DNA of 64,000 bases. Source: Blasia pusilla (lineage: Eukaryota). The stretch covers positions 35,092,001 through 35,156,000 of the forward strand of contig CM114271.1 of NCBI GenBank assembly GCA_050084515.1. Direction: 5' to 3'. The position numbers and the translations under genes were made by a program. Below the pieces are notes generated by a model that worked only from the letters and a program-made list of their open reading frames with translations, was not told where the DNA came from and ran no database searches. Shown here piece after piece: positions 3,114-64,000 of this stretch. Each line of letters opens with the position of its first letter. Position 1 is the stretch's first letter.

Positions 3114-3147
3114 TACATACTTTCAAATTATAATAACTTCTTGTAAC

Positions 3148-3433: not shown

Positions 3434-3499
3434 CTTGTAACCCAATTTATACATTGTTAGAACAGAGTATGAAGTCAAGAGTGGATGAATGAGACTTTC

Positions 3500-17792: not shown

Positions 17793-22632
<4,840 letters not shown>

Positions 22633-28453: not shown

Positions 28454-29731
28454 TGTCGTATAGTAAAATCAACCAGTGTGTAAACTCCTTCGTCATTAAG
28501 TGTTAGATAGAGTTTCATTAGTATTAAGTAAATTGGCTTAGAAAAAGGATATTCTTATGTTTAAACCTCTTTATGGTGCCTCTTTTATGCGGGCCCAACT
28601 TTAGGAAAAGGAGGTAATAAATAAAAGATGACTTTATAAAAGTAAAGTAGTTGCTTTAATGAAAAGCAAAAGTAGTCTTGGTTGGTGGCTAGGTTAGTTG
28701 GGGTAATTTGGAAAATATCATGTGGGTAAAAGAGGATATTTTGGAAGAGATAAGAGGAAATCTACTTGTGTCAAAATGTGATTGGCTAAGCCTTGAGAGG
28801 AAGCCATGTGGCACAAGATAAGATAAGCTCTATTTCGTACTCTTGTGGATCCCTTGTGAGTATATAAAGAGGAGGGACCTTCAAGGGTTCATCACCTTCT
28901 ATTCCACATCTTGAGTCTCTCGTGTCTCTCTTGAGTGTATGACTTTGGGATTGCTTGCTCTTCCAATGAGAGTGGATCACCCCTCTTGGAAGAGTAACTT
29001 GATCATGGTCTATTCTTCGAGAGGTTTCTAGAGTGTGGTGTGTGTGTGTGTGTGTGTGGGGATGAGAGGTTTGTCACTGTAGAGGAGTTTAGTCATACTA
29101 AAATAGCGGATGTTTTGGCTTGTTACTTTCCCAATGAGAGTGGATTACCCTCTTGGGAGAATAACTCGCCAAAACCCATTCTTGAGGAGAGTAGAGAATG
29201 TCATCAAGCATGGATAGGGGTGGAGCACGAGCTGTGCCCAACTTTCCTTTCCTAAATCCTTACCATGTCAAGGTACTCTTTGTAGATAGGCACTGGTTCA
29301 CTCGCTATTTAGTTTATCACTTTGGGGAGGCGTTCATGAACCAGGTCATGCAATCTCCAACTCAGGTGATTCTTCCTATCGTCACATATGGAAGGACATG
29401 GGATTGTACTTTGTATGTCCTTATATAGCGATCCATGGATGTCAATAGGCCTGGTCAAGTAGGGTTTAACACTAGTTGTGCTATCTTCCTCGTGTACAAA
29501 CGTAAAATAGTTTATAGGGATTTTATAGTTAGGAATTTCGGGGTCCGATGTTACGAAGAAGTGATCGCCTCGGCACTTCCATTTGTGATACCTGTCGTGA
29601 GAGAATGGAGAGTGTACATCATAATTTTGTATTGAAAAAGGAGAACTTATTAGAGAGTTCACCTTGCATCGACCGCATCTACCGCAGCTAGAAGGCCCGC
29701 CCTTGCTCGAAGAAAGATTCTCGACACGACA
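28454..29731 (+). mobile_element. Solo-LTR-like insert (1278 bp) with a 4-bp TSD, inside the decayed DNMT domain
   Basis: Termini TGTCGT...ACGACA; GCGT on both sides (28450-28453, 29732-29735); removal restores VLRRAYARAEHPSH. TATATAAA at 28861 and an imperfect ~60-bp internal duplication (~28961, ~29128). Confidence 0.85.
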
Positions 29732-32700: not shown

Positions 32701-35700
32701 ATGCCACATATGCAATTGGGGCCTATAATTTTCTTGGTTGGCGATGGGATAGAGGTTTAGCAAGGAGACATCCTTAGTATCCTTCTCACCTTATTTTAAA
32801 CTCTATAGATGAGAGCCTTCTTTACCTATTTCCATTCGTCGTAATGTTGGTCAAATGTTGAACCTTGATGATCTTGTGGTATGAGTGTGAGAATATTCTC
32901 AATGGGCGAATAATTTTTAGAGTCATATCCATGAGATTAGAGAATTTGGCTATTGCACAACCATGAGACATATTGAGGTATGTAAGGAAAATGTTAGAGA
33001 CCAATGATTTAGAGCCTTCATGAGGGACACTATATGACATCTATAATATTGGGCATACTATCTTTAGATTTTATGAGCTATTGACATCCGATGTTCTCTT
33101 ATTGGAGGGACCTGATAGCATAATTTGGAGGTATATGATGTGTATAGTTATATGTCATATCACCTTTCTAACATTGATAGGACAATACACCAAGCTTAGT
33201 TGTAGTTCCGACAAGCTTATATTTTATGTTTTGGAGATTTGCTCAAGGTGCACTCATTATGCTAGTTTCTGATGGATGGTTGAGAGGATGGCAGCTGGCA
33301 TGTCTGGCGCCACCTCTTGCTAGAGTTCCTCATGGATGATGGATATGTCCAAGATGTATATAGAGTAGGTACTAGGTGGTCATATATCTAGACTTGTGTT
33401 AGTGATATGGATGACAAGAAGGCGATTAATGACGGGGCCTCATGACCATCTGACCTTTTTGCTCTTCACATCATAGATTTGAACCCTTTTTCTTTCCCTC
33501 ACAATTGGATCAATGTTTATACATTGATCACCCTTTCCTTCAAGACTACAAGTATGTCATTACAGACATTCCTATATGTAGACAAGCTTTGCAAAAATTT
33601 GATACTGTGCCCCATGATGTACAATGACATACTTAACATATTTAATGAATACAACACAAATATTTTACATATTCACTTGAAATTTTATAATAACACAACA
33701 ATACCATACAATAGTGCAAAATTCCTTTTTTCCCATAGATAAGTTGTTCTACTTCCCTCAATTGGTGTGCTTCCTTGAAGATTGAATCCATCGTGAACTC
33801 TTTTGAGCATACAATGTGTTGCTTAGCAAAATACTCCTCAAAGGAATGAGGCTCTTTGGTATCAAGCACATACTCTATCCACTTCAACTTTCTATAATGG
33901 CCTTGAGTTTGAATTTTTCCATGGAACTACTTGCTATTTAAGGTAATAAACTTATCACATGTTGACTTCAAATGCGATTTTTTAGGAGAAACAACCAAGA
34001 AACTCCTACCATAATTTCTTAAATGCACATACGAGTAAAAGCCTCTTATTGATGGAACCAAATAATACATTAACTCTTGCAGCTCCTTGCACTTGCTTTT
34101 CCAAACCAATGACGTCATTTCTCCAACATTTGAGGTACTCCCCATATCCACAAGGGTAATTAAGGCTTGCTAAGCCCAAAAAATGAAATTCCAAACCCAT
34201 GCCTCTTATGGAACCTTTTATGAGTAAAAAAAATCAAAAGGGATGCATTTATGACTCAAAGTAGGAGTTTTATGTTAAGTTGCAAGTACCTCCACTCACA
34301 CTTGGCAAGAACACGCATTCGCATATTGTGACTGGTAATAGCAATGCCTTTTTAAACTATGAAATAACCATTTTCCAAGTACTTGGACTCACAAAAAACT
34401 TGCGAGTCTCATTACTCCCAACATAGTCATGCCTTGCAACAAGAAAACTAGTCGCAACAAAGCCGCAAGGTAATTGCACGAAATGCAATCGCAAAGTGAA
34501 CTCGTAATGGACTCACAAGACATCCTCAAAGTTGATTATTGGACCAAAAAATTAGCCACACGATGATCAAAATCCCTTGTAGTGCTTGTCAATCAGTTAT
34601 AACAACTTTGGTATTTTTTGTCTTATTTTTTGTTTCTTGGTATTCTAAAGGAAAGTGCTACAAGAATTTTGGCTTGAAGTTCCTAATCTCTAAGCCCTTC
34701 CATAACAACTTCAAATCACAAGTCAATAGAATAGATAGCATGGTTGCACAAAAATAGACAAGTCCGTCCCTAAGACAAACATGGAAGGATAATTACGAAT
34801 ATGCATTCCAAGATATGGGGCCCACACTTTTTCTTATGGTGGGAAGGAAGGGGAGGGCGATTAGGGTAGCAAGGTGAGAGGGACTGAAAATGGGATGAGG
34901 AAGCAATGAGCAAGTGCATAATATGGAGGCAAGTGGGGGGCAAGAGAAAGAGAAAATAATGGGTCTTACATGGACAAGTCCTTCCTTAGGATAGATGTAA
35001 GTCCAAGGACATGGACTTTGTCCACATGAAACCTTGATAGGCACCCAAATGAAGTAATAAGATATTTTTTGAGAGCTTCATATACTCAATTATTTCACTC
35101 TCAAGTCCTTTAGCAACCAAAGGGTAATATTTAGCACGGTTAGATTGATTACTCACAAAGACCCAATAGGAAGAGATATACGGTTCATGTTGTAAGATAA
35201 GGATAAAATACTCATTTAAGAATTTACCTACAAGTTATGTACAACCCAAAAGAAAAGTAATCAAAAAATCCTTCATTTGAAATAAAAGTAGATTATCCTT
35301 GTCAACATGAAAATGTCAAATGTATGAATACGAGAAGACGATGATGGAGATATATGATCATTAACATATTAATGCTAAAGGATGTAATGTGAAGATGTTG
35401 GCATATAATTACAATTCAAGATTAAAAGGTTAGAAAATTTCCCATTTGACATAGTGAGGCATCCAAAACTTATGATTAGAAATCTCTATTATTAATATCG
35501 TTAACTCTTAAAAGCAGTGCAAAATGTTGTGTAAATAAGGTATGTATTTTTGTCTTAAATTCCTAGTTTCCTTTGCAAGAAAATTTCCAACCATCTTTTC
35601 CTACTAGAGTGTTTTCGATTTCCAATATTTTCCCCTAGTTTTGTTTCCCTTTCCAATTTTTTATAATTTGAACAAAGGTTTTCTCTATAATAATACACAA

Positions 35701-36411: not shown

Positions 36412-36472
<61 letters not shown>
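36412..36472. repeat. (AG)30 microsatellite
   Basis: Uninterrupted AG run. Confidence 0.98.
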
Positions 36473-36474
<2 letters not shown>

Positions 36475-39400
36475 TCACACTTGCACAAAGTATATAGTTT
36501 ACATAAAGTTGGTCTTCAAAGATTTCAACTCTTAAGAAACTCTACTATGCTTTAAGTTAATCAAAACCTTTTGTTAAAGTAGTCAAGATTCCCTCGAGAA
36601 TCATCAACTCTCCCTTTTGATAGTCCTTCTCTTTCAAATGTCACTACTTATTATCAATAATGATGTTATTAGTGTGCCTTGGTAATGTCAAAATGAGCAT
36701 AAACATTAGTGTCGATACGACTAGCCAAAGTGATGGGTGCTTACTCATCTCATTGTCCTTTCAAATTTGACCAACTACTAGCTTTTGTGTCAAATTTGTT
36801 TCAAATATTTAATCATGTAGTTTATGGAGTTATTTTTTGTTCTCATTGAAATCATTTTTATATTATTTTCCATACTTCTTGCCTGCTTCTCCTCTTGGGA
36901 TGTTGTTGACTTTATACTTTCCTTATCCTCTTGTGAGGTTTTTCTATTTAAGAAAAGTGGATCTATCTATTGAAAAGGATAATAAGACAAAATTTAGTAT
37001 CTCTCTTGCATACTTGCTTCCTTGTAGAGGGTTCAGTTGAACTTTGTTTCAATACTCTATCTAATATAGGAGATCTTTCGAATTTTACTTAAGTACATTT
37101 TCTTTGAGATGGACATGCTTTGTTTTTTCCAAAAAGGTCATGAGCTCACATGTTTTAAGTCCTATTGGTCATATTTAAAATACTCATATCATTTACAAAT
37201 TATTTTAAATTATTTGAATACCAGGTGGATGTGACAATTATTAAGTAAGATTCACATCCTTATATGATTTCAAATTAGAGACCAATTTTTTTTGGGGGAA
37301 ATTAGGTCATAGACACATTTTTCATAAGAATATACACTTTGAAAATTTTATATTCTTAAAAAGGTTCCAACCTTAAAAATAAGAAAATTCGAAAGGATGA
37401 GATGTAATGGTGACACATATCAATACATGGGATCTCTAATTGTGACATTACCAAAAAAAGAGTTACATAAGCCTAGGTATCTTCTTCTTTGCTAAAACAA
37501 TTCCATAGCCCCTTTAAACCATCCCAAATGGGACTCCTAGGTCCTTGTATCCCCGACCTTATTACAATGATTTTTGTAATATGAGTTACAACACCGGTAA
37601 GGCTAAACTCCCAAATAAGGCTTTGTAGGATATAAATAAATAGTTTATCATAATTATGTAAACGACCTTACAAATGTGTATCTTATAGATTTTAAGTTGG
37701 AAAGTTGAACTCAATATTTTGTTGAGTGGAAATCGTTCTCACCCCTAATATGGTTACAAGTATGGCCCTTAGTAATGGACAGCCAAAGTGTCATTAAGAT
37801 AGAAACATAAAAAAATGAATAAACAAGGTTACAACATTTAAATATGATAGTGCTCGATAAATGATATGCTTGACATGCCTTTAAAGTTTTCTTTGTCTAT
37901 TTATGTGATAGAAGGGCGTTGTGTGAATCCTAAGAATCCTCATCTTTTAAACCACGATGGGCATGATGTTGTGGCCGTTTCAATCGACATTTATGCCGAT
38001 GGGATAAAAAGCGATAGAGGGATGGTTGGCAATTGTTGGCTCTTATATGTGAACTACATTTTGTTACAAAGGAGAACATGCATTATTTTTTATTCCTGAC
38101 TGGAGTGGGGACTGTGGCGTACCAATGTAGTGAATGTAGCATGACTCTATATGTGAGCAATCCAATTGACAATATAAGGCCTACAAGAACATGTGGCATG
38201 ATTTTAAGTTGGATGTTATGAGATCGAGAGCGGCGTTCATGTGTAGAGAGAGGCGCAACTCGACGCAGGAATTTTGGATTCCCTAATTAGATCGGATATA
38301 TACATGAAATGGAAGGTTGACGTGGTAGTGACCGACGTCATAGTTGAAAATCCTGCGACTGATTTAGTTTAGGCATATGTGTTAAGATGTTAGCCTAAGG
38401 GAAATTGATATATAGAGGAGTAGTAGTGGTGGCATGGGAGAAGAATCATCTTTATGGTTTTCATCATAAAGGACATCGCTCCATCCCATTAGGTATTGAG
38501 ATATACGGAGGTATGGGCGAAAGGTTTCATTCTTTCCTTATTGAGTGTGCCCATCTTCTCCACTCAAGGAACAAGTTGCTTTAGCTACTATACCACTATA
38601 ATTTTAGACATCATGTCTAAATCCTCAAGTTGGATCCATCCCTCTATAAGGCATCCAAGACTATTGTCTTCTGCAGCGGGTTTAGGTTGTGGGAGACGCC
38701 TTAAGGTTGCTAGATGTTCTCTTGCTAAGAGTCACGTATCTTTGACTATCGGTGATATTATTTGTAAAATGAATGAACTTAGATTTTAGGGGGACTCCTC
38801 TTCTCTCCTCCTCTCTTTCCCTATGACTCTCCCCTATGAAAGGATGTCCAATGCATTGCTTTTTTCTTCTTCACCCTAGTAGGATGTAGCCTTGATATTC
38901 TCCATCTGGTTGAGTCCCCTTCCCTATACTTTGCATGGATTTCCCCTTTTTTTAAATTTCTCGATTTCAGATAGAACAACTAAAGAACTCCAAATTCAAT
39001 TCATAAATCAAATCAAAATCATATTTATTTAAAAATAAAGAAAAGAAGTGCGCCCATCATAACTGGTCCACCAAGACCAACCCGTGTTGTGAGCGGGGCC
39101 GACAGGTGGAGTGAAGGGAACGTCTAAACCCATAGCATTTAAAATATGAAGATAAAAAGTTTTTCCTTGTGCGTCTCTCTCGTTAACGAAGCGCGTGCGT
39201 GGAAAATATTATAAAACAGGTTAAAGTAGCGGAGTGGCTTACGTGTATGCCTTCCCATGCATCTTATGAAGAGTTTATAGGATTATTTAGTGACCAATGA
39301 TTAGTACTTTTGCATGAGGCAGAGTGACATGAAGAACAGCCCATGAGATACCTACCTTTGAATATATCCTCATCATAGAGGAGAGGAAAAGAATTCTCGC

Positions 39401-42363: not shown

Positions 42364-42923
42364 GTTTTCGTTCGATCGAATTTCGCTAACTCATCGTGTA
42401 CGATCCATATATGTACTTTCCTTCAAACATTCTACCATTTGGGCAAAGCCTAATTTTCGTACTATCTGCATGCGTCTGCGCAAAACACCATGGCTATTAT
42501 GAGCTTAATATGTGTGGAGACATTGAACCCTCAAACTAGACTTAACATTCATTGGCGGGTCTCTCGAATAATAGTATAGACTTTCTATATGTGACTTTTT
42601 CCGAACTTGCAGACAACTATATACATAGATATAACTTAGTTGCAAAGCCAATTCCTTTTGAATTTTAGTTACGATCCCTACAAGAAGTGGATTCCAACTG
42701 CAGAGCTTGCATAATGGAAGTTACTTGTAACTTTCTTGACCTTAGGATGCGAATTTTGAACAGTAGGATGTTAGCATATTAAGCTCATAATAGCCATGGT
42801 GTTTAGCGCAGACGCATGCAAATAGTAAGAAAATTAAGCTTTGCCCAAATGGTAGAATGTTTGAAGGAGAGTACATAAGTGGATCGTGCATGATGAGTTA
42901 GCAAAATGTGATCAAACGAAAAC
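42364..42923. mobile_element. Foldback/MITE-like element with ~147-bp terminal inverted repeats
   Basis: 42364-42510 is the reverse complement of ~42776-42923 (for example CCTTCAAACATTCTACCATTTGGGCAAAGC / GCTTTGCCCAAATGGTAGAATGTTTGAAGG). No clear TSD. Confidence 0.8.
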
Positions 42924-43265: not shown

Positions 43266-46200
43266 TGTTGTGCGCATACACATCGCTACACAACCCACAT
43301 TGCTAGTCACATCTACACACCACACAATACCAATCTTCCCCAACATACGGGTAGATCCACACATAAATGAAACATACTCATGCATATCTATTGGGACCCC
43401 ATAACAGAATCAAGAGTAGTAAAAATGGCTCACCCGGCCTAAAACTCCACTCATGAATCTACATCGGCATATTGAACCACATGCACCCTCTACTATGAGG
43501 GAATCCGGATGCTAGCACCCTAACTCCTACACACCCACACACGTCTATGCAAGAGAGGTGCTCCTAAGGCTCAACATGAGAAAGATGGCTTGAGAAAGCC
43601 ATCTCTCTCACTCTTATACCCTTGGGAAGAGCCAAAAGGCTCTTTCCCCAAAAATAGCCTCCAAACGGTAACATGCGTGCACAAGTTACCGAGGACCCGT
43701 TGATTCACTCAACGGGTCACCTGACAGCCTAAAACCAAAATAGGTAAATCACCATAAACGATGTTCCCGACACAACAGACTTGTCGCCTACCTCATCCGA
43801 CATCTCGGGATGAAGTTACACCCGAACAACCCACCGACTCATTATTCCGTCGACGCGATAGAACTCTACCTACGTAGAAATAAGCTGTGACAACTCTCGT
43901 GCCCATACACATCGCTATACAACCCACATTTCTGGTCACATCTACACACCACACAACACCGATCTTCCCCAACATACAGGTAGATCCACACATAAATGAA
44001 ACATATTCATGTATATACACCGGGACCCCACAACCACCCCCTAGCTGGCAGTTGGGTCCCCCTAACTCTAGATAGCACACACATATATACCCAACAAGAT
44101 CTCCTATCCTACACACATCTAGCACCATCGACGCCGTCATCCTCGGACACTGCCGCACTGCAGCAACCCGCCGTGTTGATCCCTCCGAAGAGATCTAACA
44201 CTCTCGTACCCTGCTCCAACATAGGCATGGCTCCACGCCTGCCTCACGAGCTCGTCTGCACTCCACACATCTCAACGCTCGTCCCCAACAACAATAAAGC
44301 AACTCTGCACCATGGGAATAGACACCCACCCTAGCATGTCTCTCCGTGGGACTATCCGCTACAGGAATGTCCTCCGCATGTGTGCTCCTCTCCCCAAACC
44401 ATCCTGATCAGCGAACACCACCTATGAATGCTGCCAACGTGGTCATCGTATCCTCACGTGGTCAACCACCACTACTCCCTGCAAACTGCACTGGTAGATG
44501 GCTCCCCCGTCCATCACTTGATCGCCACCCTGGCCGATAATAAATTGTCTCCTCCCAAAAATCCAGAATAAAACCTAGAGGGTACAACACCGTACTCCCT
44601 ACCAACACATCATACGACTCTGTCAGTGTAGTAATCGCTCGAGTGCGCACCATCTGTGAATGCTGCTAACGTGGTCACTGTATCCTCATGTGGTTGACCA
44701 CCACTACTCCCTGCAAACTGCACCGGTAGATGGCTCCCCCATCCATCACCTGATCGCCACCGTGGCCAATAACAAACTATCTCCTCCCAAAAATCCAAAA
44801 TGAAACCTAGAGGGTACAACACCGTACTTCCTACCAACACATCATACGACTTTGCCGGTGTCGTAATTGCTCGAGTGCGTACCATCGCACTATCCAACTC
44901 ATGCTCTGGTTGGAGTCTAACCACCAACTCTTGTTGAGTCATGAACTGCGTGGGTGATACGCCCCAAATAGAGGTCTGTATCTGAAAGGGACAACACTCG
45001 ATGTCGCCTTTCCGTAATCCCAAGGCCAAACACACCGCCTTCCCTAACATCAAGGGCTGCGCTCCCGAATCAAGTAGGACGCGTTGCGGGTGGTACACCG
45101 TACCTGTGGGACTAACCAAGCGAAACACTCCTACTTAGTTATCCAACAACATCACAACTGGTGTGATCATGGCTCGCTCTATGGCCGGTCGAGCTGGCAT
45201 GTCTACCAACTTTGCCGCTGCCGCATGCCATAACTCAATGGGGGATGTCTCGAGCTCCTGCTCCGAGGGCAAGTCCATCACCTCCTCAAATACCTCTAAA
45301 CGAGCGGCAGTAATCTCTCCACGCTCACACAACATGGCGGCCAGCTGGAACACCTCCGCTGGTCCAACTCCCAATATCGCCAACTCCATGGCGGAAAAAA
45401 ACAGAGCGTGGCTCACCCTAGTGGCCACCTCCAACAACATGGTCAACACTGGCTCCTCCCGAGCCAGCATAGGAGTTGTCTCTCCAACTCCTCGTGACGT
45501 CGATGCACTGTTCCACTGTGGGTACTACCAGTCGTCGAGGCACCATCAACGGTGTATGAAGTGCCTCTGACAAGGTGAATGACTCCGGAACCCTGGCTTG
45601 TCGCCCATCGGTACCCTCCTGTGGGTTAATCTCAACCCTACCTCTCGATGGCTTGGTTACTCTTGCTGCACCTTGAGTCACCACCGCAGCAGCCTCAACC
45701 TGAGCCGCACTACACATAAATCCCATCCCCGTAGAATCCTCACCAACATCGTGGTATGATGTGGAGGTTGACTCCACAATAGCTACTCTTAGCTCTGGGC
45801 CCACCTGTAGCTGCATCATCGTCATGGCAGCAATCCTTTGCTCCAACTAATCGATGCGCGTAAGGAGCGCTGCATCGAGTGCACGTCCTCCATCTCCCAT
45901 GACTGGTGATGGCACTCTACCACTATGATCATCTACCACTCAATCTCCACCAACTCTCTCGCCCCCAAGTCCTCTGCCTACCTTAGGACGTACATCTCGG
46001 CAAAGATCATAACAGCTATCCCTAGTGTGACCATATCGGTGACAATGATCACACTATAATTGTGGTGGGGCCATCCTTTGTGGCTCCTGGGCAATCGGAG
46101 GCGTCCGTGGTCCTCTCCCATGTTGTGGACAGTCCCTTTGCCTATGTGACCCACCACACGTCCAACAAGCCAACCCTGGACCCTGTTGGGAAACATACGT

Positions 46201-52510: not shown

Positions 52511-52632
52511 TACATGTCACATGTCACCTCCTCACTAGCCTCTAGATCTAAGGACCCTCTATCAGACCTCGCCATCAAAGTCTTGACACCCTGACTCTCC
52601 ATAGCCAACAAGCTCAAATAGGCCGACGTGTG
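52511..52632 (-). mobile_element. Left piece of an older family copy into which the 52633-62958 element inserted
   Basis: Encodes SAYLSLLAMESQGVKTLMARSDRGSLDLEASEE, homologous to 55020-55135; continues at 62959. Confidence 0.85.
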
Positions 52633-52743
52633 TGTCATGCGTATATACATCGCTGTCATCCAACACACACACAAACATGCACGATCCCATGCTAACTCAT
52701 GGCATCCAAACAACGAGACAAGAAGTACCAAAATATCTCCAAT
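52633..52743 (-). repeat. Repeat A, terminal copy at the element 3' end
   Basis: TGTCATGCG...CCAAAATATCTCCAAT, repeated at 53259-53386. Confidence 0.92.
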
Positions 52744-53256
52744 AAAGTAAGATCCAATCTCTCTCTACACAATCTCACACCATAGCTCTCAAAGGTGTGC
52801 ACTCTCTTTCATGTCAAACCAAACCCAGTCTCCTAATGAGAGGCTTGGGTTTCACTCACAAGGCAAGGGATCATAGCTCCACCGCCTCATGCCAAGAGGT
52901 TCAACAAAGAGTGAATGAGCTCTCAAGCTCTCTCTCCTTGGGATATATATCCCTCCCCTCTCCCAAGCTCTCTCCATGGTAACCTATTCTCCTAAGTCAC
53001 CTCCTTGGCTCTTGACCTGATGTAGGAGGTCAAGGGTTACTTACCAAAAATAGAAAGTTGATCATATACTCAAATGGTACTTATCTAAAATAGTAAGTTC
53101 CTCAATATGGCTCCAAACGAGCCAAAACGAAGGGGAAACCTACTCTCTCAGGTTTCTCGGGCCTCAGTAGGTCATCCTCGACCTCCTAGGCCTGTCCTCC
53201 ACTACTCTTGAAGACGTTTTACTAGATCTCGCCGATCTATCCTAAAGGATGTGATA
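52744..53256 (-). repeat. Repeat B, LTR-like internal 3' copy
   Basis: Aligns with 62451-62958; by-eye count is about 19 substitutions and 3 indels over ~505 bp. Confidence 0.95.
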
Positions 53257-53258
53257 GT

Positions 53259-53386
53259 TGTCATGCGCATACACATCGCTATACAACATACATCGCTGTC
53301 ACCAAACACACACACAAACACCCACGATCCCATGCTAACTCATGGCATCCAAACAATGAGACAAGAAGTACCAAAATATCTCCAAT
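53259..53386 (-). repeat. Repeat A', internal copy separated from B by 2 nt
   Basis: Junction ...GGATGTGATA|GT|TGTCATGCGC...; same sequence as A plus a ~17-bp internal duplication. Confidence 0.92.
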
Positions 53387-53570
53387 TGCCCCCTAGTTGG
53401 TGGTTAGGTCCCTCTAACTCCAGATAGCCATCTATTCCTACCTACCATGACATACATCTCTCGGATGCTAAGAGCAAAAGCCCGGGTGCTCATGTGGCCC
53501 CATCGTTAGTCGCCTTCCCGTCATCCATGTAAGAGAAAAATTCGGGATCGAAACCTACCTAGTATCTCCT

Positions 53571-54830
53571 CTATGTACATTTGGGACACATCCATCGTCC
53601 CCGAGGAACCCTAGTGAGAGGTGGCCTCAGACATGCCATATGCCAACCTATCGAACAAACATCACAGACTAGCATCGTGGCCGCACCACGGGAAGAACCA
53701 CACAACATACAACACAAGCCTGCAAGAACTACTGCTAAGCTCAGATCCACTGTAACATCAATGTTAGGAAGGTGACATGGTGCACAATTACGCACATGGT
53801 CCTTCCATACCATACCATCGCGTCCCTCTAGCAAGAGAACACCGGATGGCAAAACGTCACGCACTCTCAAGATAGTGCGCCTGCGATCACATCCAACGCC
53901 GCGGTGCCGCCGCCTGCGCCGCAAGTAGACATAATCTCCGTGATGAAACCTTCGGATAGTTGGTCGATAACCACCACCCCGAATAGTCGCATACCTCAAC
54001 GTATCCCGATGTTGCGCAATCGCCAAGTTCTCGAACGCCATGGGCATCACTCTCTGAAACAACTCAGCCCTTTGAGAACATGCTCGCATCCATACATCTA
54101 GGTTATCAAGGTCCAGCACCTCACCAACATCTTGACGAATGGCCGCACGTTAATCTGGCTCTCGGCCATAAAGTAGCAAGTACGTTGAAAAAGATGCTAA
54201 GGATGCGTGCTTGGTGAATCTGTATCCCATCGCCAACCAGGGCAACTGGAGGTCCCAATCTCCTATGTGACCTCTTTGCAAGCCATACTTGGGTAAACCC
54301 CTCTTCACCGTCTGCACAACTCTCTCCGCTAATCCATCCGCCTCGAGATGATCTCGCAAAGTCGTACGATGGTCGATGAGCACTGATCACACAAGGCCTG
54401 AAACTCACCGCGAAACTCGGTACCCTGGCCTGTCAACACCTCAGCCGGTGTGCCATAATGACTCAACACTCTATCAAGGAAGGCATAAGCTACTCCCTCA
54501 CTCGCTTTGTCAGGAAATGCAACCAACTCGATCCACTTCGAGAAGTGCTCGACCATCACCAACACATAACGACTGTGACGCTTTGTCAAAGGCAAAGGTC
54601 TTGCAAAATCCAAACTCCATCTATACCCTAAGCCCATGATCGCTAATGGATGCAACTGTGGAGTCGGAGCATTGAACGATGCTCGGACCCGATCACAAAC
54701 CATGCACTTGGCAAAAAATTGCTGAACGTCAGTCTGCATGCCTCACTACCAATACTCAATCTGGAGCAAGTTGTACGTCCGCTTCACCCCAAAGTGACCC
54801 AACTCCTCGTGGGCACGCTCCACTAGTCGT
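53571..54830 (-). pseudogene. DDE integrase with a C-terminal PHD finger (PHD at 53574-53714)
   Basis: HHCC AHEELGHFG...CMVC; core WSLDF...VEHFSKW...LTGQG...GLAERVV; C4HC3 PHD CMLC...MLVCDVCSIGWHMACLRPPLTRVPRGRWMCPKC. Frameshifted. Confidence 0.93.
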
Positions 54831-55218
54831 GCTCTCAACGAAGGATGTGGCACTATGCGTACTGTGCCATCCTCCCAAACCCTCAAAATATGTGTCCCCT
54901 CCCAACGGAACCGTCTGGCCCGCTGTAGGATCCGATCTCGCTCTCTAGCACCCACAGTGCTCGCAACGCTGTCAGTACAAAGGTACTCCAAGACTACTCC
55001 ATCATCATGAATATCTCGGCCACGTGTCCTCTCCTCATTGGCCTCGGGATCCAAGGACTCTCCACTAGACCTCGCCATCGAAGTCTCCACACTCTGGCTC
55101 TCCATAGCCAACATGCCTAAATAGGCTGACGCGTGCCATCCTGGCACTGACTCCTCATCACTCTCTCCATGCCATCGAGCTCCAGTCGCATCTCGTTGAC
55201 TCGAGCATGGGTTAAGAC

Positions 55219-56646
55219 TCAACCCATCTGCATCCTGGTTGAGCGTCCCAAGTCTATGTACCACCTGAAATCATATTCCTGCAACAATAGAGCCCATCTC
55301 GCAAGCTTCCCTGTAAGCTTGTCAGACTCCATCAACCACTTCAGTGGTTGATGATCAGTGATGATGGTAAAGGGGTTGCCGAATAAGTAACATCTGAAAT
55401 GCGTGACACCCCACATCGCAGCCAAGCACTCACCCTCATACGAGCTGTACTTCGCCTCTCCAGCGTTGTTTGAGCGGCAAGCATAAGCCACCACGAACTC
55501 TCTACCCTCATCATCATGTTGGGTGAGCACCGCTCCAAGCCCCAACATGCTCCAATCTGTGTGCAACTGGAAAGGACGCCCCCGGATCCGTCTCCTCAAG
55601 ATGGGCGCAGACGTCAATCTGTCCTTGAGCAACTGAAATGCTCGCTCTTGGTCATCCCCCCAGTGCCACTCATGATCCACCTTTTCAGCAAGGTCAGGGG
55701 CTTCGCAATCGAATTGAATCCGTTGATGTACCGCCGATAGAAGTTCGCCAATCCCATGAATGGGCGAACACGGCTCACATCTATAGGGCGTGGAATGCGT
55801 GAGATAGCCTCTACCTTTGTATGCTGAACATCAAGGCCCCCTAGGTATATCGTATGACCCAAGTACTCAATTTGGTCGTAGAAGAACTTGCACTTGCTTG
55901 GATGTAGCTTGAGCCCATGTAATTGCAATTGTCGAAACACCTCCTCTAGATGTCGCTCATGCTCCTCAACCGTGGCGCTAAAGACTATGATGTGATCAAT
56001 ATAACACCTAGCAAAATCCAGACTAGCCAAGATCCTATCCATGACCCTTTGGAACTCAGCCGGAGCGTTCTTTAACCCAAATGGTAAGAACAGCCAGTGG
56101 TACAAACAATCCTTCCCGTGAGGATCGATGCCCCAAAATGCCGTCTTCTGCATGTCCTCCAATCTGATAGGCAGTCGATGGTATCTGGCTCGCAAATCCA
56201 ATGAACTGAAGACCTATGCGTGACCAATCACATCACAAATCTCCTTTAGGGGCGGGCATGGCATACCTATCGGACTTCGTCTGTCGATTGATAGGTCGGT
56301 AATCCCCACACATCCGCCTATCCGTCCAGTTGCCATGCACATGCTTCTTGGCGCGCATGACAGTGGCAGATGCATACTCCCCATGGGACATCTCCACTAG
56401 TCCTGCTCTGACCAAGTCTTGGCTCCTACTCTGAATCAGAGCCCTCTCCATATCACTGTACCTATAGGGTCGTCGGAAGATCGGCATGTCACTCGACAAC
56501 TCAATGCGGATCCCCGGTCCCTTCAGCGTACCCAAATCCTCCATGGTAAATGAAAAGCAGCTCCTATAACTCTTGAGGAACTGATGTATCCGGCGCCGCT
56601 CTCCTACTGTCAACTTAGGGCCCATATCTGGCTCCCAAGTCTCCAT
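55219..56646 (-). pseudogene. Ty3/gypsy reverse transcriptase and RNase H
   Basis: RMCGDYRPIN, DLRARYHRL, KTAF, LPFGLKNAPAEFQR, CYIDHIIVFS (YxDD mutated), YLGH; RNase H HTDWS, YEGECLA, TDHQPL. Confidence 0.95.
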
Positions 56647-56989
56647 CGTGACTACGGTAGGACTCTCAGGTGCGGGTATTGGTGGTTGCTATGGTGCAAC
56701 CCCATCTTGAACAACAACACTCGGCTGCTCTTCTACTTCCAACTGCAAATTCTGATCTCCTCCACATGCAGTGCTCAATACCATGCTCGATGCTGTGGCT
56801 ATCATCTTCTGGCGTACCTGCAAAAAATCCCAAGAAGTCCAAGGGTGTCTCTCCCGATCTCCCCTGGTGTGTTGATCTCCTCGGGTCTCGCCCCTAGCCA
56901 CTGCCTCCACCGTCTCCGTAGGCATGGGGCTCACCAACGCTACCGCTGTGATCTGTCGCGATCTCATCTGACGCTGCTCAGCTACTCCC

Positions 56990-57934
56990 AAGATGAAGAT
57001 CCATGTCAAGCAGTTCAGGTCCATCGCCTGACCCAAGACATGGCGTCGTGATGCCTCTGATACTGACGGGACTGCCGTCACTCCTGTGGGAAATCCCATC
57101 GCCCACTCTCTCTCGTCGGCGTTAGGCTCCACCAACCTTTGAACTTGGTAATCCCAAACCAAGCCACGATCGGCCTCCTTGTATGCATAGGAAGCGGGAA
57201 AACTCACAAACGTGGGAAAGGCTGCCCGCAACCTACCTACCCTATTGACCACAGTCAGCGGTGGTCGATCATCGTGCCTCACTGCTTGTGATCGAAGACC
57301 TGGATCTAGAATGGAATCCACTAACAAATGGGAGGGGCGCTCCACTTTTGCATATGCCCTCCATAACACCGCATGGGGCACCAAGTTGGTTCACCATAGA
57401 CGCAGGGGATGGGCTCTAGAACCTACACTCGCCGCATCCAAGAACACTTCTGGGCCGATCCAGGCACGCACCTGATGAGCACTTGTCACCACCCGTGACA
57501 TGGAGTCTCCTAAGATGGGCACATTCTTCCGAATGTAGATTGGAGAACGAGACTCGTGCTCCTACAACTGCCGTAAGACCCTCAACATATCCCAAAACAA
57601 TCTGGACCGAGTGTCGCCCAACCGCTACCTCGTCCAACACACAATTGGCCCTAACATGGCCAACCGGGATTGACCAAATCAATGGTCCCTACCCGCTCTA
57701 AGTCCTGCGCCCCCAACAAGGAAATATCCCTCGGTAGGGAACTCTGGTACCCTGTACCGTGGACGCAGACAATAAGTCGGGAAAACGGAGGCGTAACTGC
57801 GCCACATATCGTAGTGAGACGCGCCTCGCAACATCATCACTCTCCACATATAGGTACTGCTGTACTCGCACTCCTGCTTGCAAAACAACAGCTAACCTGG
57901 TGCTAATCCCTCCAAAGAGATCTAACACTCGAAT
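56990..57934 (-). pseudogene. DNMT3-like C5-cytosine methyltransferase catalytic domain within the retrotransposon polyprotein
   Basis: Across frameshifts: motif I IRVLDLFGGIST; II YLYVE; III RDIS; IV IDLVNPGWPC*G (catalytic PC at 57654-57659); RSRLFWDMLRVL; VI YIRKNV (ENV); VIII LDAASVGSRAHPLRLW*TNL; IX-X EREWAMGFPTGVT...SRRHVLGQAM. Confidence 0.92.
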
Positions 57935-58329
57935 ACCCTCCTCCGGGATACACCACATAATGGGTGTGGTATCCAAGGGTGTCATCGTAGCACTCCCTGA
58001 TACCTTGGGTTCCTCAGACCCATCCCGCTCCGGTACAAACACCTCGCTCCACGCGGTCTGCATGTTCTCATTTGCCAATCGTCGAAGCTTCTCAGTCGAG
58101 CCCCACAGCGGCACCACTCCTCCACGGAATGATGCAGCTACCATAACACTCCTCTCCATAGAAATGTCAGGAACGGAAGTATCCTCTACATGGACATATC
58201 CCTCAATCAAATCAATGGGCCAAGTGATGGCATTGCTAAATGTTGCTAAGGTCGCCATCTCTCTTGGCCGTTGCTTGATAACTCCACCTATGAATTGAAC
58301 GGGTAATGAACTAAGGCGCCCATCACTTG

Positions 58330-58696
58330 ACTGCCATCCTGGTCTGTAGGATGCTGACTCCTCCCAATAATCCAGGGCAAACCCCATCGGGTATAACACA
58401 GCTCCACCCACCAAGACGTCATAGGACTCTGGATCAGTCACTATAGCCTTGGCTCGCACCACGGACTCATCTATAGGATGTCTCGGGCGAATTCTCACCA
58501 CGACCTCCTGTCGGGTGATATACTGTGTGGTACTTGCTCCACCCAAGGATATCTGTATCCGGAATGGACAACACTCCACATCGGCTCTCGTCAAGCCCAA
58601 TCCTCTAAATGACGCCTTCCCCAACATCAGAGGTTGCGCTCCTGAATCCAGCAAGACGCGTTGCGGACTAAAAGCTCCACCTCGGGGACTCACCAA
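58330..58696 (-). pseudogene. Retropepsin-like aspartic protease
   Basis: VLLDSGAQ catalytic motif and YDVLVGG; in the same open frame as DNMT motif I (ORF 57698-58696). Confidence 0.9.
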
Positions 58697-59490
58697 CTGG
58701 AATACCTCTCCTCAGTTATCCAGCAACATAACACTAGGAGAACCCATGGCACGCTCTATCGCGGGTCTAGCGGGCATCTCGGCCATCCTAGTAGCCATGA
58801 CTTGCCATGCATCGGCGTGGGCGGCCGAGCATCCGCTCTAAGGGCAGGTCCATCACCTCCTCTGCAATCACCTCTGAACGTGATGCAGGAACTCCAACTC
58901 TACGCTCACATAGTGAAGCGGCCAGCCAAAAAGCCTCGGCGGGCGTACCCCCCAACGTCATAACATCGGAAGCAGAAAATAAAGGAGTGCGGTACACAAC
59001 AGTGGCGGCCCCCAACAACGTGCTCGACACATGCCCCTCATGAGCATCAACAATAGGAGTCGTCGTACTTGCTTCTCCCATCGCCCTCCGTGCCTGCACA
59101 CCAACAACATCACCAGCTCTCCAAGAACTCTGATCAGGACCCATGGATGGGGTCCTCATCGCCTCGGACAACATGAAAGACTGAGGAAGCCTAGTCTGTT
59201 TCCTGGCTTCCCCTCGCTGTGGATCCAACTCTGCGGCTGCTCCACTCGTCACAACTGCGGCGGCCTCCATCTGGGAAACCCCGCACATCCAATCAGGATC
59301 TTCCAGATCTCTGGCTGCTTGATATGATGTCGATGCCACGGATCTGACATCGGGTAACCTCAATGCCATAGCGGCAATCTGCTCATGCACTGCGATCGGC
59401 GAGCCACCATCCCATCCCACCACGCCCGTCGTCTCCTCGGGCGCGTCTAGGTGGTAGTACTCTACCTCCTCCACGGGCACCTCCACCACC

Positions 59491-60879
59491 CTATCGGGCA
59501 ACTCCAGCTCCTCGTTCCCCAACGGGACCACTTGATGCACGATCTCTAGGTTCACCCGGACCGGCTGCTTGCCCTGGTGCCCTCTCTGGCTCTCGGTCCA
59601 GACGTAACTTAGGATGTAAATTGAAACACCTAGCGCGTGTATGACCATACCTCTGACAATAGTCACACTGATAACCTCCTGGTGCAGCACCATCTCCTCC
59701 TCCCGCTTGAGGCGCGTCCATGACCCTAACGAGTGCAATGGCGCTGATGATGGGCTCCACCACATGACCAACAAGTAATAGTAGGCGACTACTGTTGAGC
59801 TGCATATGAAGGCGCAGGTCTCTGTGCCACGGGCTCCCAGTATCCTCCTTGAGCTCGTGGTGCCAGAGTTGACCTATCTCGGAGTCCACGTTGTTGCACA
59901 GGTGGTGCAGCCAATCGTAACTGCTCTCGCCCAGAACCCATGGTGGCTACGCTCTCCTCCGCCATGTTGTGCTCAATGTTCTTGGCGGTCCTAAAAACAT
60001 CTCTCAACGTAGGGGAGGTGTTCATAAGAAGCACCCCCTCCCGCACCCGTGGCCGTAGGGTCTGGTCCAGCATCGCGTACCATGACTGGATAGCCTGAGC
60101 CTGTGTCACCCCCTGAGTGACGTTGATCAATCGGCGCAAGCGAGTGTAAGCCTCACGTAAACTCTCAGCCGAGCACCTGTGGAAGTTTTGGATGCTCCGC
60201 AACTTTTCCGTCCGTACCCCCTGGTAGCTTGCCCTCAACTCAGCAAAGAACTCAACCACGGGGTTGAACCTGGGATGAACCCGACTAAACGGTGCAAGTG
60301 CTCCAGTGCGAGTGACCCCTCCTAAAACATCACTTGTGGAAGAGGAAGTAGCCTCTTCTGACTCCTCCTCCTCATCTGGGAACGGCTCCGTCCATGACAC
60401 ATAGTGGGGGTCGAGTAGAGTCCCCATGCCTCAATCTCCTGGGCATATTTGTGGGAGAACTCATGGTAATCGTCCATGGGTGCCCCCTCTAAATGCTGGA
60501 ACATACCGTTCCATGCTGTAAACAAGTTGAACTCTCTAGAGTTCGTGGCCCAGTGGGAGACGCACCAACTCCTAAACTCTGCTATGAAATCCTACAACTC
60601 AATCGTACCTATTGCGCCTGAAAACCTACGCGGTCCTCTACCCCGGTCGTCCATCTCGTACGCCCAATTGGTAGGACCACTCACAATGTGTGGCGATGTG
60701 CTCACAAACTCCTCTACACCCTCCCCCTCATCTGACGATAACACAGAAAGAGGTCGAGGTGGTCCATGAAGTGAAGACCCTCGGAACCTCACGCCACTCT
60801 GTGTAAAACCTCTAGAGCTACTCTTGGGTTCACCACCTCGCCTCTCAAAGTCCCGAACGGACGCCGTGATGACCCTCAT
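59491..60879 (-). pseudogene. Gag with two zinc knuckles
   Basis: Gag-like ESLREAYTRLRRL; knuckles CWSCGGAHHQRHC (~59735-59775) and CDYCQRYGHTRARC (~59630-59670). Confidence 0.85.
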
Positions 60880-61779
60880 GCCCTTCTCACTTGATCACTC
60901 TTGTCTCGTGAGTAATCCCTCAATCACTCATCCCAAACATGCGGCACTCGATCTACACTCTTCCTCCCCGAGACATGTAACGTGCGGCAATAAGCGGAGT
61001 GGTGGGGCAAATCGACCAGGCTATCATTTCATCGATAACCTACCCTCAACTCCGAACATCCCACATAGGTCTATGTCCCCTAAACCACATACATAAATGA
61101 TGCTCTCAGCTCCACACACCCAATATCCCCAAATAAACTACCAAATCCGAGAATCCCTCACACGTGCAGGGTAAAGGACCAAAATGGGTAACCTGAACAC
61201 ATGTCAATGTTGCTCCTCAGCAACTGCAAATCTCGACCCCAACTCGGTCGTGGAGACAACTCCTCCAATCAGCAAGTCATACTTCTCCCATACTGACGTT
61301 GCTCAAAACTCCTCGATAGACGGTGCGGTTCCAGTGGAACAGTGCAAAGATTGCAAAGCGGCACGGGCGACTACTTAACGGCACGGCCCTCGATGATGGG
61401 ATGCGGCACTCGGCGGCATACCCTCCTCAATCAACAATAAACCCACACTCTGCTCCACAATGCTGGAGCGGCTCCGTGATCGAGACGCTGCGTGCCGCCA
61501 CGAGCGGCACAACGCGGCAATCGGCGGCGCGTTGCGGCTACGGGCGTCACGGCACGGTACCCGATTGTCGTTGAGCGGCTACCAATCACAAAATAGCAGC
61601 ATGAAATAAAAACTCAAACACTATAACAAGAGGTCATATGCCATCACAGGTTGATGATGGTAGCGGCCAAAACAAAGTACGTGATGGCGACGCAAGTCCG
61701 AGAATCAACGAACGTTGTGGAAAACCCTCCACTCCGTAACGACGACAATGGCAACCAAGGGTGGACAACACACGGTGGA

Positions 61780-61905
61780 CCATTGACGGTGATGGTTGAC
61801 TATTGATGGTGACGGCCGAAGGGTGATGGTGACGGTTGACCATGGACGGTGACGATTGACCGTTGATGGTTGACGGTGACTATGACGGTGACTATGACGG
61901 TGACG
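61780..61905. repeat. Degenerate short tandem repeat (GACGGT/GATGGT units) in the 5' UTR of the Ty3 element
   Basis: GACGGTGATGGTTGAC...GACGGTGACTATGACGGTGACTATGACGGTGACGG. Confidence 0.8.
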
Positions 61906-62450
61906 GCCGCCGCTGGTGTGGCGGCTGGTTTAGTGTTTGCACAATTTAACCCTTAAAATCGCCTTGCAATGGTAGTTTTGCAAGATTGACCATAACTTTT
62001 TGCTCGCAACTCCAAATTACGCACTGTTTGTTGCACAATATTTAGAATATTTAGAATCATTCATTCCAGTAAAAACTGACGGGGACTGTCGTAAAGCCCA
62101 ATGTCTCTTTCTCCTACACAAAAATTTGGTAGCGCTTCCGCGCTTATTCCTCCCAAAAAAATGTAAAACTTGTAAAAATGCAAATCAACAAGTGACATGG
62201 TGCTCCCGGAAGCACCAGTATGGGGCAACCCGCCCCCATACTCAATCCCTATCAGAAATTGGGCAGCGCTTCCGCACGCCACCCTTCCACACAAAATTGA
62301 CAAATGCAAAGAACAATCCAAGCAACCCTTGCTCTAATGAGCACTCCCAATGAGCCGTTAAACGGGGAACACGGTCCCCAACCTGCAAAAACAACTAGTG
62401 ACCAGCGAGCTCCCCCATGAAGCTCTCTCACTCTCTCATTCTCTCTTTGT

Positions 62451-62958
62451 AAAGTAAGATCCAATCTCTCTCTACACAATCTCACATCATAGCTCTCAAA
62501 GGTATGCACTCTCTCTCATGTCAAACCAAACCCACTCTCCTAATGAGAGGCTTGGGTTACACTCACAAGGCAAGGGATCATAGCTCCGCCGCCTCATGCC
62601 AAGAGGTTCAACAAAGAGTGAATGAGCTCTCAAGCTCTCTCTCTCCTTGGGATATATATCCCTCCCCTCTCCCAAGCTCTCTCCATGGTAACCTATTCTC
62701 CCAAGTCACCTCCTTGGCTCTTGACCTGATGTAGGAGGTCAAGGGTTACTTACCAAAAATAGAAAGTCAATCATATACTCAAAATTGTACTTATCTAAAA
62801 TAGTAAGTTCCTCAATATGGCTCCAAACGAGCCAAAACGAAGGGGAAACCTGCTCTCTCAGGTTTCTAGGGCCTCATCCTCGACCTCCTAGGCATGTCCT
62901 CCACTACTCTTGAAGACGCTCTACTAGATCTCACCGATCAATCCTAAAGGACGTGACA
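62451..62958 (-). repeat. Repeat B', LTR-like 5' terminal copy
   Basis: Matches 52744-53256 but has no adjacent repeat A; ends GTGACA on the + strand. Confidence 0.95.
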
Positions 62959-63402
62959 CGTGCCATCCAGACACTAATTCCTCGTCACTCTCTCCATGCC
63001 AACGAGCTCCAGTTCTATCTCGTTGACTCGGGTATAGGTTATGACTCAATCCATCTGCATCCTAGTTGAGCGTTCCAGGTTGATGTACTACTTGGAAATC
63101 ATACTCCTGCAACAATAAGGCCCACCTCACAAGCTTTCCTATAAGCTTTTCGGACTCCATCAACCACTTAAGTGGTTGGTGATCAATAAAAATGGTAAAG
63201 GGGTTGTCGAATAAATAACATCTGAAATGCACGACAATCCATATTTTAGGCAAGCATTCACCCTCATACAAGCTTTACTTCATCTCTTCAGCGTTGTTTG
63301 AGCAACTAGCGTAAGCTATCACAAACTCTCTACCCTCATCATCATGTTGGGTAAGCACTGCTCCAAGCATCTACATACTCCAATCAGTATACAACTAGAA
63401 AG
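62959..63402 (-). mobile_element. Right piece (RNase H region) of the older host copy
   Basis: YEGECL...IDHQPLKWLMESEKLIGKLVRWALLLQEYDF; homologous to 55135-55572. Confidence 0.9.
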
Positions 63403-64000
63403 TATTGAAGATTGAGTTACAGTCAAGCTCATGAGACACCTGAATTGCTACATTTGGTACTCACACGAAGTAGGGAAGCTTCATCTTGATTAGTCAATTA
63501 AGCGCGATTATCTTAATTAGGGTTAGTTAATCATAGTTAGTCTAACTTGAGACTATTATTAAGATTAGGGTTAGGGTTTCTTGTACATACCCTATATAAT
63601 TGAGAAGGGGACTAGCCTCCACTCATTGAAAATTTTATTCTCCATGGTGGTGTGTGAGTATGAGAGCCGTTTTCCACCAGTTATGCTTCTTTAGCAATTT
63701 TCCACATGGTATCAGAGCGATAGGAGAACATCACTTGAAATTCTTGGTGTTTGAGGAGAGAAAAGAGGCAAGAGAAGGCACAATTTCAGTTTGGAAGAAG
63801 AAAATTTTATTCAGAGCTCAGTGGGTGCAGATTTCAAGTGGAGCTTTGACGGCGATAAAACTTCCGAGGTATTTTTAAAGGCTTTCCCGGTCGATTTAGC
63901 CATATGGGTTTGCAAAGGCTACAACCACGCCCAAAGGTTGGCTCAAGATATCTTGTAGATCTTTTCAAGAGCTTTCCAATGCATCCAAAATTGCTCGATT
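63403..64000 (+). mobile_element. 5' LTR (~63403-63706), PBS and leader of a conventional LTR retrotransposon running off the window
   Basis: Host homology stops at 63402; TATATAA at ~63593; LTR ends CA (63705-63706) directly followed by TGGTATCAGAGC. Confidence 0.85.
63707..63718 (+). promoter_or_regulatory. Primer binding site complementary to the 3' end of initiator tRNA-Met
   Basis: TGGTATCAGAGC immediately after the LTR-terminal CA. Confidence 0.9.

Follow-up and report, generated by a model that had tools for sequence, protein, structure and literature searches.

How does a retroelement with a DDE integrase come to carry split direct repeats in place of an ordinary pair of long terminal repeats (LTRs)? 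The question is raised by an element in a 64,000-nucleotide (nt) stretch of Blasia pusilla DNA (GenBank assembly GCA_050084515.1, contig CM114271.1, positions 35,092,001 to 35,156,000 of the forward strand), which we call the window and number from its first base. The element runs along the minus strand from 62958 to 52633 in the order B′, leader and coding region (about 9 kb in all), A′, AC, B and A, where B′ is a copy of B and A′ a copy of A (Table 1). A preliminary description of this DNA had given the same order, with coordinates that our repeat alignments confirm to the base. It likened the layout to that of PAT and Ngaro and held that the element has neither a primer-binding site (PBS) nor a polypurine tract (PPT). 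Judged by its sequence, the element is a degenerate, dead copy of a Ty3/gypsy-type retrotransposon, of a lineage common in bryophyte-type DNA. We find its split-repeat layout throughout the family, together with a PPT and a putative self-priming PBS that would bracket a conventional LTR, inside which the two integrase ends appear to face each other.

Split repeats in the window and in the wider family

The two B repeats of the element are 94.4% identical over 515 aligned columns, and the two A repeats are 94.9% identical across a 99-nt ungapped core, A′ carrying in addition an internal 17-nt duplication. Base 52743 can be assigned to either B or A. Across the internal joint the sequence is ...GCGCATGACA-AC-TATCAC...; the element itself begins TGTCAC at its true 5′ end, and its termini are TG..CA. 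The joint is thus the two element ends abutted with a 2-nt spacer, as had been described before, and it has the same form in relatives. In the homologous stretch 55021-55574, which is the RNase H/integrase region of the studied element itself, the counterparts of the two outer flanks (62959-63402, 84% identity, and 52518-52632, 81%) adjoin. The element is therefore nested inside another copy of a related family, and the contiguity of the flanks both fixes the insertion boundaries and reveals a 4-bp target duplication, CACG (62962-62959) against CACA (52632-52629), with a single CpG-to-CpA difference.

Repeat alignment within the window also uncovered a second element, which is diverged and has lost internal sequence; its 3′ module is the same. 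There, AGGGGG (44042-44037) is followed by A′ (44034-43895), GT (43894-43893), B (43892-43406) and A (43405-43266). This second B begins TGTCAC, and its sequence is unrelated to that of the first element's B. A further copy of the joint, with spacer AT and an intact TGTCACG start, is present in a DNA contig of the same species.

Relatives were sought by scanning metagenome contigs with the PHD-bearing C-terminus aligned to 22 homologues. Of 600 candidate stretches, at least 512 proved to be relatives, and the analysis covered the 80 best loci. At 36 of the 80, A′-NN-B-A comes directly after the PHD stop codon (long form), and at 21 the element stops exactly at the end of A′ (...CACGACA, then unrelated flank; short form). 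The remaining loci are broken off before the end of A′ (7), have no similar 3′ region (8), lie on contigs too short to classify (7) or enter B at the contig end (1). When loci are merged by common 3′ flank, 46 distinct insertions remain, 29 of them long, 16 short and 1 polymorphic, and the long-form loci span three sequence subfamilies. Two long-form copies have B repeats of very different size, with a large insertion in L005 (B of 1171 nt) and a large deletion in L064 (A′-to-A spacing of 250 nt); both retain intact A′-NN-B and B/A joints.

The 80 loci contain 61 copies of B, of which 35 are flanked by A on both sides and form the 3′ module, 23 have A on neither side, 2 have A only downstream and 1 only upstream. 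The two copies with A only downstream have a damaged A′, and the one with A only upstream lies at a contig edge. Seventeen of the 23 copies without A are the 5′ repeat, 3.4-9.9 kb upstream of the PHD match, and all 17, like the window's own B′, show the order flank, B′, leader with no adjoining A. The preliminary description had allowed that most family copies might carry ordinary paired A+B LTRs, in which case the layout would be a local rearrangement or an assembly artefact. Paired LTRs, whether A+B or B+A, occur in none of the 80 loci and around none of the 61 B copies, and neither a mirror form, a canonical 5′ LTR nor a solo B-A unit was found in the 80 loci. The split-repeat layout is family-wide, and the classical LTR rule fails for it: the integrated copy starts and ends inside the LTR, with A at 0 of 18 5′ ends and an extra A at the 3′ end.

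Purine tract, candidate primer-binding site and integrase ends

A run of at least five Gs lies within 16 nt ahead of A′ in 34 of the 36 long-form loci, compared with 122 of 10,800 random 19-nt windows of the same loci. Ahead of B, a purine run of at least 8 nt occurs in none of the 36. At the other end of the internal region, the first bases past B′ have a complementary site within B, located approximately 25-35 nt downstream of a TATA-like motif. We compared this complementarity with 1000 shuffles for each of 13 elements. The perfect complement reaches 17 nt in L002, 15 nt in L046 and L069 and 13 nt in L024 and L066, lengths attained by 0 of 1000 shuffles in every case. It is 10 nt in L025 (8 of 1000 shuffles reach it) and L050 (14 of 1000), and 9 nt in L003 (44 of 1000). 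L020, L049, L039 and L007 have perfect complements of 6-8 nt, no better than shuffles. In the window, 62450-62435 pairs with 62626-62611 over 8 perfect nt, or over 15 of 16 nt with one mismatch. The paired words vary by subfamily (CAAAGAACTATG..., AATCACCAAAAGT, AATTCTAGAAAAACT, CAAAGAGAGAATG) and keep their complementarity; the pairing therefore covaries, which is the signature of functional pairing.

Tf1 elements prime reverse transcription with the 5′ end of their own transcript, at a PBS adjoining U5. The position of the pairing matches this rule, given the predicted transcript start, and the PPT and PBS would then bracket a conventional replication LTR consisting of A + NN + B. In this proposed LTR, U3 comprises A, NN and the first part of B, and R and U5 occupy the last 118-176 nt of B. 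The preliminary description was right that no TGG-type PBS follows B′ and that no purine tract precedes B. It was wrong to deny the element any PBS or PPT: a putative PBS of the self-priming kind lies after B′ and a PPT before A′, and the tRNA-independent priming that it proposed gains support from the former.

The integrase ends are alike in the three subfamilies, B beginning TGTCA(T/C)G and A terminating C(A/G)(T/C)GACA. The best-kept joint, in L002, is the perfect palindrome CATGACA-GC-TGTCATG. The joint motif was found in 38 loci and itself fixes the spacer at 2 nt, so that the 2-nt spacing in 38 of 38 follows from the motif. The spacers are AC (16), GC (14), GT (3), AT (2), AA (2) and TT (1). 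We considered that the spacer might be made anew in each cycle; this is not upheld, as 35 of the 38 are GC, AC, GT or AT, which fit an ancestral GC with transitions, uneven as the excess of AC over GT is for that account.

Integrated copies start at the start of B and finish at the end of the trailing A. Both ends are visible in 11 elements, and the 4 bp bordering them match fully in seven: L002 (AAGG), L024 (TTTG), L039 (CATA), L050 (ATGT), L003 (ACTA), L007 (TACA) and L049 (CCAA, counted with a 15-nt terminal duplication taken as part of A). Three of four positions match in the window element, L046 and L025. The DDE integrase, the TG..CA ends and the target duplication reported in the preliminary description are all borne out by Pfam matches, by the reading of the ends and by the CACG/CACA pair.

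Replication route and its alternatives

We lean towards a route in which reverse transcription is conventional and the resulting circular or tandem-LTR DNA is opened by integrase at the palindrome in U3. An RNA of the form R-U5-PBS...PPT-U3-R would give a cDNA [A NN B]-PBS-internal-PPT-[A NN B], with the TATA box, transcript start, R and U5 all within B. The integrase recognition ends would lie not at the LTR tips but inside U3, facing each other as the palindrome ...CATGACA-NN-TGTCATG.... The U5 end of the cDNA would first be joined to the U3 start, as a 2-LTR circle or a tandem-LTR DNA, and integrase would then cut both strands after both CAs of the palindrome in the PBS-proximal LTR. With a 2-nt spacer, such a cut should leave two CA-3′OH ends, each with a 2-nt 5′ overhang as is usual for processed retroviral ends, and these would insert with a 4-bp duplication. 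The trailing B/A joint would be the U5/U3 joint of the circle. The integrated order B-PBS-internal-PPT-A-NN-B-A holds two permuted LTRs and thus matches a joining of the tips followed by a cut in the palindrome: one LTR is split at the palindrome, with its halves at the element ends and its 2-nt spacer lost, and the other is intact.

A stricter claim, whose probability we place just short of even, is that, across this gypsy lineage of bryophytes and charophytes, the palindrome built into U3 is the integrase attachment site and that productive integration passes obligatorily through U5-U3-joined DNA, whether 2-LTR circle or tandem-LTR. If so, this would be a natural retroelement in which the 'dead-end' LTR circle is a real integration substrate, and its proviruses would be circular permutations of the cDNA.

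The family is transcribed. Three stranded RNA runs from the same species, mapped to the element, all show sense coverage over the internal region and B, with antisense coverage mostly more than 10-fold lower. Depth is approximately 10-30 in the 5′ half, 50-100 from reverse transcriptase (RT) to PHD and 30-50 on B. In each run 3-6 reads are at least 99% like the window copy and approximately 3,350-3,480 of approximately 3,750-3,930 show 90-95% likeness to it; other members of the family are thus the source of the transcripts. Many reads depart from the window copy exactly at the start of A′ (loose ends at 53389), and A must therefore differ between subfamilies. Three features are suggestive only: a step in B′ from approximately 50-100 at 62644 to 110-150 at 62574, thin coverage of the trailing A (5-9 at 52678) and the sole cluster of read ends near the B/A border, 5 molecules at 52763 in one run. 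As speculation, polyadenylation at the R end might use the GT-rich trailing A as its downstream element.

The same reads yielded some further observations. In all three runs, reads (10, 11 and 11) skip 90 nt of A′ (53299-53388), which we attribute to expressed relatives with a shorter A. Another set of reads, again present in all three runs (10, 12 and 5), links 55449 directly to 56521; the 1071 nt of RT/RNase H left out are not bordered by canonical splice ends, which points to transcription of a family member with an internal deletion. Where RNA or DNA reads depart from the window copy, the changes are mostly transitions, as cytosine methylation would lead one to expect.

The short form bears on how the 3′ module is lost. 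L049 (long) and L066 (short) share both flanks, with 96-97% identity in the flanks and 88.8% in the element interior. At least one short copy is therefore the same insertion without NN-B-A, as recombination between A′ and A would give. Target duplications are retained by the short copies L003, L007 and L025. Short copies thus arise at least partly by A′×A deletion; they could alternatively form if both palindromes were cut in a 1-LTR circle or in linear cDNA. Having no 3′ R, a short copy should be unable to replicate. In the L049/L066 pair, the element has diverged faster than its surroundings.

Several observations weigh against integration from circular or tandem-LTR DNA as outlined above. 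No circle or tandem-LTR molecule has been observed. A symmetric 2-LTR circle predicts a mirror form, B-A-NN-B-PBS...A, of which the 18 visible 5′ ends include no example; its absence would need a bias in the choice of palindrome, a quick collapse through the two close B copies or a template jump confined to the right end, each of which is possible. The transcript start and poly(A) site are predicted, and both the depth step at B′ and the sparse reads over the trailing A are weak evidence because nearly all reads derive from other copies. The primer complementarity has decayed to 6-8 perfect nt in 5 of the 13 elements (L020, L049, L039, L007 and the window), and one of the 11 elements with both ends visible, L069, has no target duplication. 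The B/A joint shifts by 0-5 nt between close relatives, which fits a joint made anew in each cycle without proving it; ordinary mutation in a T-rich context could produce the same variation.

One alternative, unlikely in our judgement yet the foremost of those considered, keeps the A+NN+B LTR, the PPT and the self-priming PBS and dispenses with the circle. The U5/U3 joint would be made during reverse transcription by an end-to-end template jump, in which the plus strand, on reaching the template end, jumps onto the start of U3 and lengthens the right end only. Integrase would then pair the B start in the 5′ LTR with the end of the appended A, giving the long form, or with the end of A′, giving the short form. 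Such a jump accounts for the missing mirror form and for the coexistence of long and short forms, and a B/A joint with 0-1 nt of ambiguous origin and small shifts is what template jumps give. Against it, evidence for jumps of this kind is lacking both here and in related elements, and the short form requires no special route where it is an allele of the long form. The template jump and the circle are both compatible with the present observations.

We regard as improbable a replication cycle like that of PAT, Ngaro or DIRS, in which transcription would start within B′ and stop within the trailing A, and the termini would be rebuilt from the A′-NN-B joint with neither PBS nor PPT. The formal layout, A1-internal-B1-A2-B2, speaks for it, and de Mendoza et al. 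2018 (PMC5890265) describe the repeat structure of KnitGypsy-Dnmt3 as that of a DIRS element. The conserved PPT before A′ and the covarying, putative PBS after B′ speak for a conventional LTR instead, and the rebuilding of ends from the internal junction that the preliminary description proposed is not needed once these define a U3-R-U5 unit. Further, 10 of 11 elements have target duplications, perfect or with one mismatch, Ty3 gives the best PDB match to the RT/RNase H homologue, and Phage_integrase, the tyrosine recombinase family, has no match in the 23 open reading frames (ORFs) of at least 80 amino acids (aa) scanned, in agreement with the preliminary description; rve and Integrase_H2C2 are present. 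Finally, that the layout is a local rearrangement, a nested solo LTR or an assembly artefact, as the degenerate state of the element and its position in a transposon nest might suggest, is refuted by the recurrence of the module in the second window element, in 36 of 80 metagenome loci, in three subfamilies and in DNA contigs of the species.

Proteins, surroundings and known relatives

The domain order is gag, protease, Dnmt3-like methyltransferase (DNMT), RT, RNase H, DDE integrase and PHD finger, the DNMT being inserted between protease and RT. Pfam matches in the window follow the order RVT_1, RT_RNaseH, Integrase_H2C2, rve and C-terminal PHD finger (Table 1), and the protease is known only from a DSGA motif seen by eye. 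Every domain of the window copy is broken by stops or frameshifts, which marks the copy as dead. The best PDB matches of the RT homologue P0011 are Ty3 RT (4OL8, E 4e-48) and Ty3 Gag-Pol.

The window's own frameshifted DNMT fragments have no Pfam match, even at E 10, and the domain is assigned because homologues carry it. The segment 57752-56824 aligns, at 58-66% identity, to precisely the stretch of Marchantia proteins that scores for PF00145, and all 25 PDB matches of the homologue P0003 are DNMT3A, DNMT3B or DNMT3C. The ORF at 57701-58711 has 30 longer protein matches from Marchantia, Calypogeia, Sphagnum and metagenomes (39-64% identity), 18 of them with PF00145. The Protein Atlas confirmed a DNA-methylase cluster in Streptophyta. 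The nearest named proteins belong to liverworts and a moss (39-74% identity), and Klebsormidium proteins are absent from the 30 DNMT-region matches and from the 120 PHD-region matches listed.

Table 1. Positions of the element's parts, its coding domains and the related copies in the window.
Feature	Position	Strand	Basis
Outer related copy (RNase H/integrase region), host of the insertion; resumes at 52632-52518	62959..64000	-	flank alignment; tblastn with P0011 at 63394-62978
5′ target-site duplication, CACG in element orientation	62959..62962	-	read directly; flanks contiguous in 55021-55574
B′, 5′ repeat, begins TGTCAC; read as 3′ part of U3 + R + U5, a truncated 5′ LTR	62451..62958	-	likeness to B; no A on either side
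TATA box TATATAT within B′	62652..62658	-	32 nt upstream of self-primer site; relatives have TATA-like motifs at the same place
Predicted transcript 5′ end and self-primer CTCATTCACTCTTTGT	62611..62626	-	15/16 nt complementary to 62450-62435
Putative self-priming PBS, directly after B′	62435..62450	-	covarying complementarity
Gag-like ORF	59792..60430	-	Retrotrans_gag E 0.014, under the Pfam cut-off; aligns with Marchantia polyproteins
CCHC knuckle after the gag-like ORF	ORF 59491-59946	-	by eye
Dnmt3-like C5 DNA methyltransferase domain, frameshifted	56824..57930	-	tblastn to P0003 and P0011, 58-66% identity
Reverse transcriptase	55617..56688	-	RVT_1 E 5.9e-25
RNase H	55222..55830	-	RT_RNaseH E 1.2e-35
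Integrase, H2C2 zinc domain and DDE core	54332..55270	-	Integrase_H2C2 E 1.9e-7; rve E 7e-11
Integrase C-terminal region with terminal PHD finger	53574..54149	-	PHD E 6.7e-11; 344 homologues
PPT AGGGGG, 2 nt ahead of A′	53389..53394	-	read directly; G-run common to relatives
A′, read as U3 start of 3′ LTR, terminates ...CATGACA	53259..53386	-	repeat comparison
2-nt spacer AC separating the abutted integrase ends	53257..53258	-	read directly
B, read as remaining U3, then R + U5 of 3′ LTR, begins TATCAC	52744..53256	-	repeat comparison
Trailing A, read as second U3-start copy joined to U5 end, terminates ...CATGACA	52633..52743	-	repeat comparison
3′ target-site duplication CACA	52629..52632	-	read directly
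Second, diverged, internally deleted element with the same 3′ module	43266..44042	-	repeat alignment within the window

The surroundings contain further copies and repeats. Two family copies, at 967-3115 and 24231-33472, are broken off in the 3′ untranslated region before A′ and are uninformative on layout; the latter has no ORF of at least 120 aa on its strand. Both are truncated by AT-rich sequence (3115-4600 and 33472-35000), by eye other transposons, in contrast to the GC-richer DNMT elements. A repeat of approximately 1 kb (1916-2915 and 26787-27810; 73% identity) interrupts the two copies at different positions; the studied element lacks it at the corresponding points, 57995 and 53607. 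Most likely this repeat is a further mobile element, or else a solo LTR. The second element contains two tandem 232-nt units (44416-44886; 90% identity) that match a region near 58317-58438 of the studied element. Just downstream of it, a 149-nt inverted repeat (42364-42512 and 42775-42923; 91% identity, approximately 260 nt apart) may represent the ends of a small DNA transposon. Long perfect dinucleotide microsatellites with the same unit lie at 22510-22628 and 36412-36475.

The element shares its formal repeat order with PAT, Ngaro and TOC1. Elements of that type, the DIRS order, have a tyrosine recombinase and make no target duplication, unlike the studied element with its DDE integrase, TG..CA ends, 4-bp duplication, PPT and putative PBS. 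Its DDE integrase and target duplications, with no tyrosine recombinase match in the ORFs scanned, place it outside the DIRS order; it is Ty3/gypsy by the sequence of its proteins but does not follow the rule that the LTR tips are the integration ends. REM1 of Chlamydomonas was considered as a precedent and set aside, as a review gives it a truncated, reversed integrase, a different oddity.

The predicted cut has a parallel in retroviral 2-LTR circles, where cutting the palindrome of abutted integrase ends likewise gives linear, 3′-processed DNA. Cleavage of palindromic LTR-LTR junctions is reportedly also the subject of papers on HIV by Delelis and colleagues from 2007 and by Thierry and colleagues from 2015. 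Delelis et al. 2005 (PMC1180852) reports that foamy-virus integrase cuts 2-LTR circles at their palindromic LTR-LTR junction. A retroviral palindrome arises only when the LTR tips are joined, and the route is considered minor, whereas in the studied lineage the palindrome lies in the U3 of every LTR with a 2-nt spacer, and the tip-to-tip B/A joint would be left intact. If the proposed step is true, the lineage offers a natural system for asking whether LTR circles serve as integration substrates, in a transcribed family whose hosts include a genetically tractable liverwort.

The predicted priming resembles that of Tf1/Sushi elements and plant Tcn1, which have no tRNA PBS and in which the bases adjoining U5 are complementary to the predicted transcript 5′ end. 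Neumann et al. 2019 (PMC6317226) describes self-primers in Tf1/Sushi elements and predicts them for Tcn1 of non-seed plants. These elements differ in having full LTRs, integrase ends at the tips and a chromodomain, where the studied lineage has a PHD finger and a DNMT. Carried on the element, the Dnmt3-like enzyme and the PHD finger tie integration to chromatin marks.

The layout itself is in print. The Fig. 4c legend of de Mendoza et al. 2018 (PMC5890265) describes KnitGypsy-Dnmt3 of Klebsormidium nitens as having repeats as in DIRS and domains of gypsy, and a 2026 preprint mentions 'Gypsy-DNMT3' of streptophytes. By that published description, the two elements are alike in their gypsy-type Pol, which encloses a Dnmt3-like methyltransferase, and in their DIRS-like repeats; they differ in that the host of KnitGypsy-Dnmt3 is a charophyte alga, whereas the nearest named proteins of ours are bryophyte. 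In the literature searched, this account, as far as its accessible text goes, is the only description of the layout on an integrase element that we found. The layout is therefore less novel than the preliminary description assumed, and what was not found described is the anatomy of PPT, PBS and palindrome: for KnitGypsy-Dnmt3 the accessible text, unlike the present analysis, specifies neither a PBS or PPT nor end sequences, a target duplication or a mechanism. Nor did the literature searched hold an account of a PPT before A, a self-priming PBS after B, a palindromic U3 integrase site, a 4-bp duplication, the long/short polymorphism or a mechanism, on all of which the figures and supplements of the 2018 paper may bear. 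The window element is a new, bryophyte-type member of the published Gypsy-DNMT3 kind. Standard LTR finders will mis-delimit or miss this lineage, abundant as it is in bryophyte-type DNA, and what was a published oddity of gypsy domains with DIRS-like repeats gains a concrete anatomy: a PPT, a putative self-priming PBS, an internal palindromic site for integrase and a 4-bp target duplication.

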